The notes under the pieces were generated by a model. It ran no database searches. It worked only from the letters and a program-made list of their open reading frames with translations, and was not told the DNA's origin. This document shows positions 2,674 to 2,773 of a stretch of 4,252 nucleotides of DNA, one piece after another (the first letter of the stretch is position 1; the number at the start of each line of letters is the position of its first letter). The DNA comes from a virus (lineage: Duplodnaviria; Heunggongvirae; Uroviricota; Caudoviricetes): positions 1 to 4,252 of the IMG/VR virus record IMGVR_UViG_2648501206_000008; one strand, written 5' to 3'. Position numbers and translations under genes: made by a program.

Positions 2674-2698
2674 AAAAAAACCCGCTCGATGGCGGGTT
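2674..2698 (-). terminator. Intrinsic (Rho-independent) terminator, tR'-like, downstream of Q
   Basis: Minus strand reads ACCCGC-catcga-GCGGGT followed by TTTTTTTGTG: a 6-bp GC-rich stem, 6-nt loop and a 7-T tract. It lies about 40 nt downstream of the putative pR' start and upstream of the lysis genes. Confidence 0.7.
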
Positions 2699-2732
2699 CA
2701 AGAAGATTATCAACGGTAGACACACAAAGCCC

Positions 2733-2773
2733 ATCGTTAGGATAATCCTAACCATATTTTTTGAAAAATGCAA
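2733..2773 (-). promoter_or_regulatory. Candidate late promoter pR' with pause-inducing element: -35 TTGCAT (2773..2768), 17-bp spacer, -10 TAGGAT (2750..2745), predicted +1 at 2738, AACGAT at +1..+6 (2738..2733)
   Basis: Minus strand: TTGCAT-N17-TAGGAT-tatcct-AACGATGGG. The AACGATGGG string after the -10 matches what I recall of the lambda pR' initial transcribed region, where AACGAT is the sigma70-dependent pause-inducing -10-like element. It lies immediately 3' of the Q stop (2805) and 5' of the terminator. A 7-bp inverted repeat TTAGGAT-A-ATCCTAA (2737..2751) overlaps the -10 and +1. Confidence 0.5.

Follow-up and report, generated by a model that had tools for sequence, protein, structure and literature searches.

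The question raised by this locus is whether the DNA immediately 3' of a phage Q antiterminator gene forms a late-gene switch of the lambda type and, if so, which of its parts are held in common with other phages and which belong to this allele. The locus lies in a 4,252-nucleotide (nt) stretch of viral DNA (IMG/VR record IMGVR_UViG_2648501206_000008, positions 1 to 4,252), referred to here as the window, in which all relevant genes are on the minus strand. An earlier note, made from the letters alone, had proposed that positions 2674–2773 hold a compact lambda-like module: a late promoter (pR'), a promoter-proximal pause element at +1 to +6 and an intrinsic terminator (tR'). All of these elements are in place on the minus strand, and the window very probably carries the late-gene control cassette of a lambdoid Escherichia coli prophage, homologous to the Q-pR'-qut-tR' cassette of phage lambda. 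What was observed directly is the presence, arrangement and conservation of the sequence elements, and that Q is homologous to lambda Q. The parts of the cassette, in window coordinates, are the following:

2674–2773, minus strand: module under study, from promoter to terminator.
2805–3557, minus strand: Q antiterminator gene, 250 amino acids (aa), Q-lambda family (Pfam PF03589, PDB 7UBM).
2768–2773, minus strand: –35 hexamer TTGCAT of the predicted late promoter pR', 87–100% conserved among 63 distinct relatives.
2767–2751, minus strand: 17-nt spacer, TTTTCAAAAAATATGGT.
2752–2766, minus strand: candidate Q-binding element (TTTCAAAAAATATGG) in the –35/–10 spacer, proposed from position and conservation.
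2745–2750, minus strand: –10 hexamer TAGGAT, 17 nt after the –35 hexamer.
2744–2739, minus strand: TATCCT, the 6 nt between the –10 hexamer and the pause element.
2733–2738, minus strand: predicted +1 (A2738) and sigma70 pause element AACGAT, +1 to +6, 95–100% conserved.
2730–2732, minus strand: GGG discriminator-like element, +7 to +9, 98–100% conserved and identical in lambda.
2721–2723, minus strand: predicted pause position, +16 to +18 (U17/G18, with G at –10), by analogy with lambda.
2712–2738, minus strand: predicted 5'-terminal RNA hairpin (+1 to +4 with +24 to +27; +6 to +10 with +18 to +22), –7.7 kcal/mol in RNAfold.
2674–2699, minus strand: intrinsic terminator tR' with an 8-bp GC-rich stem, a 6-nt loop and T7, from its fold and from annotated homologues in SfV and Ayreon.
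2672–2738, minus strand: predicted constitutive terminated RNA of about 65–67 nt, analogue of the lambda 6S RNA.
2733–2755, no strand: palindrome with a perfect 7-bp core (2737–2751) and 11-nt arms matching at 10 of 11 positions, from an inverted-repeat search.

The identity of Q anchors the locus. The 250-aa protein matches PF03589 (E = 9.8e-54), the Q-lambda family, which is separate from the Q21 and Q82 families (Yin et al., PMC9388147). Its best match among solved structures is lambda Q (PDB 7UBM; E = 1.1e-37), a member of the same Pfam family to which it is 34% identical over the full length. In the alignment to 7UBM, residues 1–120 correspond to lambda Q 1–125 and residues 160–250 to lambda Q 117–207. 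Between these two segments lies an insertion of about 40 aa (residues ≈121–159) in the DNA-contacting zinc-ribbon arm, which brings two extra CxxCxGxG motifs, for a total of four; lambda Q has neither the insertion nor the extra motifs. A match to the DnaJ zinc finger stays below threshold (30.9 bits vs. 32.7). The Q proteins of phi80, SEN22, Klebsiella and mEp237 (254–276 aa) align over their full length with the window Q, and from these alignments the long-arm Q appears to be the commoner form and the 207-aa Q of lambda and P22 the short form. A hairpin without a T tract, TCGCC-GAAGAT-GGCGA (2782–2797, minus strand), directly follows the Q stop codon; lambda and P22 carry an analogous hairpin, TTGCCA-CGGA-TGGCAA, at the same place, and it was not seen in the distant genera.

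The promoter, TTGCAT-N17-TAGGAT, starts 31 nt past the Q stop codon. Lambda reads TTGACT-N17-TAAATT-TGACTC-AACGATGGGTTAATT, so that the two promoters can be written as TTGACT-N17-TAAATT-N6-AACGATGGG (lambda) and TTGCAT-N17-TAGGAT-N6-AACGATGGG (window), with the same spacings and with +1 to +9 identical. The shared 9-mer is AACGAT followed by GGG, at 2738–2730. If transcription starts 7 nt after the –10 hexamer, as in lambda, AACGAT falls at +1 to +6, and the terminated RNA comes to 65–67 nt. In lambda, AACGAT is a –10-like element that is re-bound by sigma70 (PMC5001585, PMC4005639), while GGG at +7–9 is discriminator-like and strengthens the sigma70 pause (PMC5001585). The pause occurs at +16/+17, and Q bound to the spacer engages the paused complex (PMC5001585, PMC4005639, PMC4914094, PMC9388147). 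By analogy with this pause, and with the elemental pause sequence, the corresponding position in the window would be 2721–2723; T17 is conserved in 98% of the 63 distinct sequences. As in lambda, the module ends in an intrinsic terminator ahead of the lysis genes.

By themselves, these motifs do not exceed chance. The promoter agrees with the sigma70 consensus at only 7 of 12 positions, and a consensus promoter scan of the window left it below threshold and unlisted, so that consensus match cannot be used as evidence; one AACGATGGG-like 9-mer is expected by chance per window. The case thus rests on context and comparison, and here the position and conservation of the motifs do go beyond chance. 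The DNA 3' of Q was gathered from ≈430 loci; promoters were compared in 37 distinct variants (≈100 loci), 109 downstream sequences were compared, and column identity was computed over 63 distinct sequences. The geometry –35/N17(16)/–10/N6/AAYGATGG is invariant in the 37 promoter variants, with TAAGAT, TAAAAT, TAGTAT or TAAATT at the –10 position of relatives. The loci that keep it include SfV, K-12 Qin, the Stx2c phages and P22, as well as loci with Q proteins 64–71% and 40–43% identical to that of the window in E. albertii and in seven other genera (Mangrovibacter, Kosakonia, Phytobacter, Atlantibacter, Scandinavium, Buttiauxella and Entomohabitans). The geometry is kept across Q proteins down to 34–43% identity. 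Column identity is 77–97% from the 3' end of Q through the initial transcribed region (to ≈2708), drops to 53–70% in the linker and the hairpin loop, rises to high values again in the stem and T tract of the terminator, and falls to 16–35% just past ≈2670. Such conservation from Q to the T tract, followed by collapse, indicates that Q, promoter, transcribed leader and terminator are inherited as a unit.

Within this unit, the –35/–10 spacer behaves differently from the transcribed region. Among the 63 distinct sequences, TTTCAAAAA and TGG in the spacer are 90–100% conserved, while the intervening bases vary. The Q-binding element (QBE) of lambda comprises 13 bp and is bipartite, being contacted at positions 1–4 and 11–13 (PMC9388147). 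The bipartite conservation of the spacer resembles this arrangement, suggesting that 2766–2752 is the QBE of the window, although its sequence (TTTCAAAAAATATGG) differs from the lambda spacer element (ATTGAATAAAATTGG). The candidate occupies the same position as the annotated Q-binding site of phi80 (spacer nt 2–8) and overlaps the start of the annotated P22 qut segment. The spacer element varies by Q subfamily, and the transcribed region is common to the subfamilies: in one locus, where Q identity is down to 43% and the spacer differs, +1 to +29 match the window exactly. In another (IMGVR_UViG_2565956633_000004, 2250–2400), an SfV-type Q, –35 hexamer, spacer and –10 hexamer are joined to the transcribed region and 6S sequence of lambda, with the junction exactly at the shared AACGATGGG. 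The SEN22-like Q clade combines one type of Q and promoter with three types of leader. In these natural chimeras the Q-specific part ends at about +1, and the pause and transcribed region are interchangeable. A spacer that co-varies with the Q subfamily and an exchangeable transcribed region both fit the lambda mechanism.

Comparison with annotated phages places the module among its closest kin. P22 (gene 23, P late, t late), which has a Q-lambda-family antiterminator, has the same layout and spacing as the window and shares +1 to +8/+9; its GenBank record annotates P late, a qut-like site, the 5' nucleotide (+1) and t late. For phi80 (gene 17, pR'), GenBank gives the –35 and –10 of pR', the Q-binding site and the terminator. 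The phi80 –35 hexamer, TTGCAT, is identical to that of the window, and its 269-aa Q has the same long-arm architecture. Both phages differ from the window in the spacer and in the sequences after +9, and in phi80, furthermore, AACGCT replaces AACGAT and the minimum-energy fold shows no 5'-terminal hairpin. Another set of relatives is the SfV group (SfV, mEp460, Ayreon and the Stx2c-converting phages), with Q 98–99% identical to that of the window and 89% identity over the 141 nt between the Q stop codon and the terminator; the records of SfV and Ayreon label the homologous hairpin a terminator. The Q of the K-12 Qin prophage (quuQ = ydfT) is ≈93% identical. The members of this SfV/Qin/Stx2c group differ from the window in having TAAGAT or TAAAAT at –10, no palindrome, and unrelated DNA 3' of the terminator. 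The same geometry was thus found in the pR' regions of both lambda and Qin, a comparison that the earlier note had proposed, and its lambda-like reading of the module is borne out by the homology of Q, the geometry shared with lambda and P22, the GenBank annotations and the conservation across genera.

Two side observations concern these relatives. The DNA 3' of ydfT in K-12 (NC_000913.3, positions 4370–4490 of the extracted locus) carries an intact-looking TTGCAT-N17-TAAAAT-N6-AACGATGGG and terminator, where no promoter or RNA is annotated; this copy could be convenient for experiments. The other concerns JAGZPX010000007.1, a contig assigned to a Veillonella parvula metagenome-assembled genome: its Q is of the Escherichia type (94% identical) and its pR' region matches that of E. 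ruysiae exactly, so that a binning contaminant is the likeliest explanation.

By homology with lambda, we infer that the cassette would operate as follows. RNA polymerase carrying sigma70 would start constitutively at about A2738. Sigma70 region 2 would re-bind AACGAT on the non-template strand, helped by GGG at +7 to +9, and the complex would scrunch and pause at about +16/+17. Without Q, the polymerase would escape from the pause and terminate at the hairpin and T7 at 2699–2674, yielding an RNA of 65–67 nt and leaving the lysis genes off. Once made from the early operon, the 250-aa Q would bind the –35/–10 spacer (≈2766–2752) and engage the paused complex. It would then travel with the polymerase and suppress tR' and the terminators downstream, leading to expression of a 59-aa open reading frame (ORF), holin, lysozyme, Rz and later genes.

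The terminator consists of a stem-loop, GAACCCGCC-ATCGA-GCGGGTTT, at 2699–2678 and an overlapping T7 at 2680–2674. The hairpin lies 30 nt past GGG, and its stem begins at +40 if +1 is A2738. The predicted terminated RNA folds at –20.1 kcal/mol (z = –2.2). A terminator is present in each of the 28 distinct variants of the clade: several different stem sequences occur, yet the predicted folds all lie between –7 and –17 kcal/mol, and a T run comes after every one. The earlier note had estimated an RNA of about 65 nt and had contrasted it with the much longer lambda 6S RNA, which is 194 nt. The length holds up, at a predicted 65–67 nt, and it is indeed shorter than lambda's, but it is not special to this allele. 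From annotated feature coordinates, the terminated RNA would be ≈59 nt in P22 and ≈75 nt in phi80, and the predicted RNA is 57–76 nt in every sampled family member except lambda and the loci that carry lambda's leader. (The simple terminator finder used here misses the long tR' hairpin of lambda, and the lambda length was therefore taken from the literature, in which the RNA ends at +193; PMC4914094.) Judging from these predicted lengths, a short terminated RNA is the rule in the family and lambda is the outlier.

The 5' end of the predicted RNA has a structure of its own. RNAfold pairs AACG at the start of the first 27 nt with CGUU at +24 to +27, and UGGGC with GUCUA, so that the RNA copy of the pause element would form the 5' arm of a hairpin. 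Among 27 distinct window-type leaders, 94% of the cells at these positions are paired, compared to 29–48% with slid partners; the changes mostly keep wobble pairing, and one locus has a double change (AACA/UGUU). In 17 distinct lambda-type leaders, +1 to +5 pair with +19 to +23 in 100% of the cells, compared to 18–54% when slid, and six sequences, drawn from two Q clades, have U3-A21 in place of C3-G21. Loci whose Q is identical to that of lambda have AAGAAT and a matching 3' arm, AUUCUU (–10.9 kcal/mol, z = –3.8). Across the Q-lambda family, the pause-element variants AATGAT, AAGAAT and AACAAT are accompanied by complementary changes in the 3' arm, giving the pairs AACGA/UCGUU, AAUGA/UCAUU, AAGAAU/AUUCUU and AACA/UGUU. 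Not every leader has this hairpin: those of the phi80 and SEN22 types adopt other folds, the stem of the AAUGA class has little thermodynamic stability, and a few single variants disrupt the pairing. AACA/UGUU in SEN22/Ehr49 does not count as covariation, since UGUU there is the loop of a stronger, different hairpin.

We therefore put forward only tentatively, as somewhat short of an even chance, that in much of the Q-lambda family, including lambda, the pause element does double duty as a pause signal in DNA and as the 5' arm of a hairpin in RNA. A double role would account for the conservation of +10 to +29 even between Q proteins that are ≈40% identical. A 5'-terminal stem is a plausible stabilizer against 5'-end-dependent decay, and the hairpin, if real, could shield both the late mRNA and the short terminated RNA from such decay; it could also affect the behavior of the 5' end after it threads through the Q nozzle. 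The overlap between pause element and hairpin may already stand in the lambda literature from before 2000.

Several points weigh against the interpretation of the module as a lambda-type switch, or against its details. The promoter hexamers are weak and were missed by the consensus scan. In lambda and P22, a –35-like TTGACT element (within TTTGACTC) stands just ahead of the pause element. The window lacks it and has TATCCT there, and its clade relatives have TTTCCC, TTTCTC or TCTCCT. In lambda, sigma region 4 is repositioned onto the DNA segment of TTGACT (PMC9388147), and Q loading may differ in detail where this element is missing. The ≈40-aa insertion in the zinc-ribbon arm of Q may likewise change the details of loading relative to lambda. 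No experimental data on this allele, or on any SfV/Qin-type pR', were found in the literature searched: a K-12 RNET-seq study lists nothing at the Qin locus, the SfIV paper makes generic statements only, and the comparative paper on Stx pR' regions gives no element-level detail on this promoter type. Finally, this particular prophage may no longer be functional.

The weakness of the hexamers could be read to mean that there is no promoter at all, and that the hairpin at 2699–2674 merely ends the early (Q) operon next to fortuitous promoter-like and AACGAT motifs, of which one AACGATGGG-like match per window is expected anyway. We consider this very improbable, given the exact spacing, the identity of +1 to +9 with the experimentally defined pause and discriminator elements of lambda, the retention of the geometry across widely diverged Q proteins, and the annotation of the P22 and phi80 homologues as pR'. 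The possibility that the region instead encodes a small protein or a trp-leader-type leader-peptide attenuator is so slight that it can be practically discounted. A 52-aa ORF (2615–2773) does span the region and an ATG occurs at +4, but the ORF begins with a TTG within the –35 hexamer, lacks a ribosome-binding site and a Pfam match, and continues past the terminator and the mosaic joint described below, a stretch in which no sequence is shared with relatives; the corresponding ATG of lambda opens a frame of two codons. The ORF and leader peptide were rejected on the absence of a family match, the crossing of the joint and the 2-codon lambda frame. A search of the whole window against Rfam 15 gave no family at the gathering threshold; the sub-threshold match to Trp_leader (RF00513; 25.5 bits vs. 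41, E = 0.047) rests mainly on the terminator hairpin and was dismissed, and no other family scored anywhere near its threshold. Much less remote, if still unlikely, is that the short pR'-tR' transcript is itself functional, as a trans-acting and possibly Hfq-binding small RNA (sRNA) in lysogeny, in addition to the antitermination role of the module. The predicted RNA has the parts for it: hairpins at the 5' end and at the terminator, the latter with a U tail, and between them a single-stranded, AU-rich linker. There is also a precedent in StxS of the Stx1/Stx2a phages, likewise a constitutive short RNA made in lysogeny from an antiterminated late promoter, which shows that PR'-tR' by-products can regulate, and whose authors speculate likewise for the lambda 6S RNA (PMC7547250). 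StxS, however, is 258 nt long, is processed by RNase E to 74 nt and has demonstrated Hfq-dependent targets (PMC7547250); no sequence relation between StxS and the window RNA was found. Within the module, conservation is lowest in the linker (53% mean identity), which is the one evident seed, the RNA matches no Rfam family, and the pause element, 5' hairpin and terminator suffice to account for the parts that are conserved.

The palindrome over the –10 hexamer and +1 is a separate matter. The earlier note had pointed to it as a possible part of the Q-binding or qut element, or as an operator. The repeat itself is real, with a perfect core TTAGGAT-N-ATCCTAA at 2737–2751 and extended arms at 2733–2743 and 2745–2755, but it cannot be a general qut element, since it is missing from the commonest haplotype (TAAGAT or TAAAAT; SfV, Stx2c phages and Qin, with Q 93–99% identical). 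On the sequences compared, the palindrome is allele-specific: among the 109 downstream sequences, the perfect 7-bp form occurs only in the window, A2743, which completes the core, is found in 2% of the 63 distinct relatives, and the 6-bp form TTAGGA-N3-TCCTAA occurs in the TAGGAT haplotype only, which makes up about a third of the distinct relatives. It could still be an operator at which a dimeric phage or host repressor shuts off pR' in this group of alleles. It is the best non-terminator inverted repeat in the window, at three positions the TAGGAT haplotype differs from TAAGAT by a base that completes a complementary pair, and five of the six pairs of the 6-bp arms are kept in four distant genera. 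Nevertheless, we judge an operator quite improbable: loci with the same Q do without the repeat, the innermost pair is found in the window only, the –10 hexamer and AACGAT fix half of the arms in any case, and by our own estimate ≈0.4 inverted repeats matching at 10 of 11 positions are expected per window by chance. There is, moreover, no known candidate regulator, and lambda pR' is constitutive.

On the opposite strand, a promoter-like site, TAGACA-N18-GATAAT (2717–2746, plus strand), agrees with the consensus at 10 of 12 positions and is oriented antisense toward Q. Its –35 hexamer corresponds to the conserved TGTCTA of the leader, read on the other strand, and the site is probably due to chance, because two such sites were found when 5.8 were expected.

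The lambda-type cassette sits in the following surroundings:

3571–4251, minus strand: DUF968 protein.
2660–2673: mosaic joint, where similarity to all relatives stops, from BLAST and column identity.
2423–2602, minus strand: 59-aa zinc-ribbon ORF.
1894–2211, minus strand: holin (PF16083).
1431–1907, minus strand: ORF in the lysozyme position, from gene order and sequence inspection; no Pfam match.
1055–1447, minus strand: Rz-like ORF, from gene order and sequence inspection; sub-threshold DUF2570 match.
59–457, minus strand: HNH endonuclease.

The lysis genes thus follow the module on the same strand, with the holin first and then the ORFs in the lysozyme and Rz positions, neither of which reaches a Pfam gathering threshold. 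BLAST matches to phages end at query position 141, corresponding to window position 2670. The 59-aa ORF looks like a moron inserted at the mosaic joint. Two to three further terminator-like hairpins (2407–2386, 2339–2323 and 2306–2285, minus strand) lie between it and the holin, and Q-modified polymerase would need to read through these as well. A chromosomal prophage of E. coli PEC422 shares 100% identity with the window over the 301 nt from the 3' end of Q to the 59-aa ORF, and with this 301-nt query, which spans the module, matches were found in 462 of 5,426 complete E. coli genomes.

The cassette is well conserved and very probably an ordinary late-gene switch of the lambda type, of a textbook kind that adds little alone. 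What the comparison adds is that an SfV/Qin-type Q (250 aa, with the long zinc-ribbon arm) is documented together with a cassette built like that of lambda, and that a family-wide view corrects the lambda-centered picture, with terminated RNAs of 57–76 nt as the rule. The possible 5'-terminal hairpin overlapping the pause element offers a cheap, testable hypothesis for a well-studied system. The module is common in E. coli, which gives it practical relevance. In the Stx2c phage LC727876.1 (locus 14706–18196), a record without gene annotation in which Q is 98.8% identical to that of the window, the module lies ≈2.6 kb upstream of stx2A on the same strand. It is of practical interest for this reason: in the Stx2c-converting phages, this type of module is probably the switch that controls expression of the Stx2c toxin.

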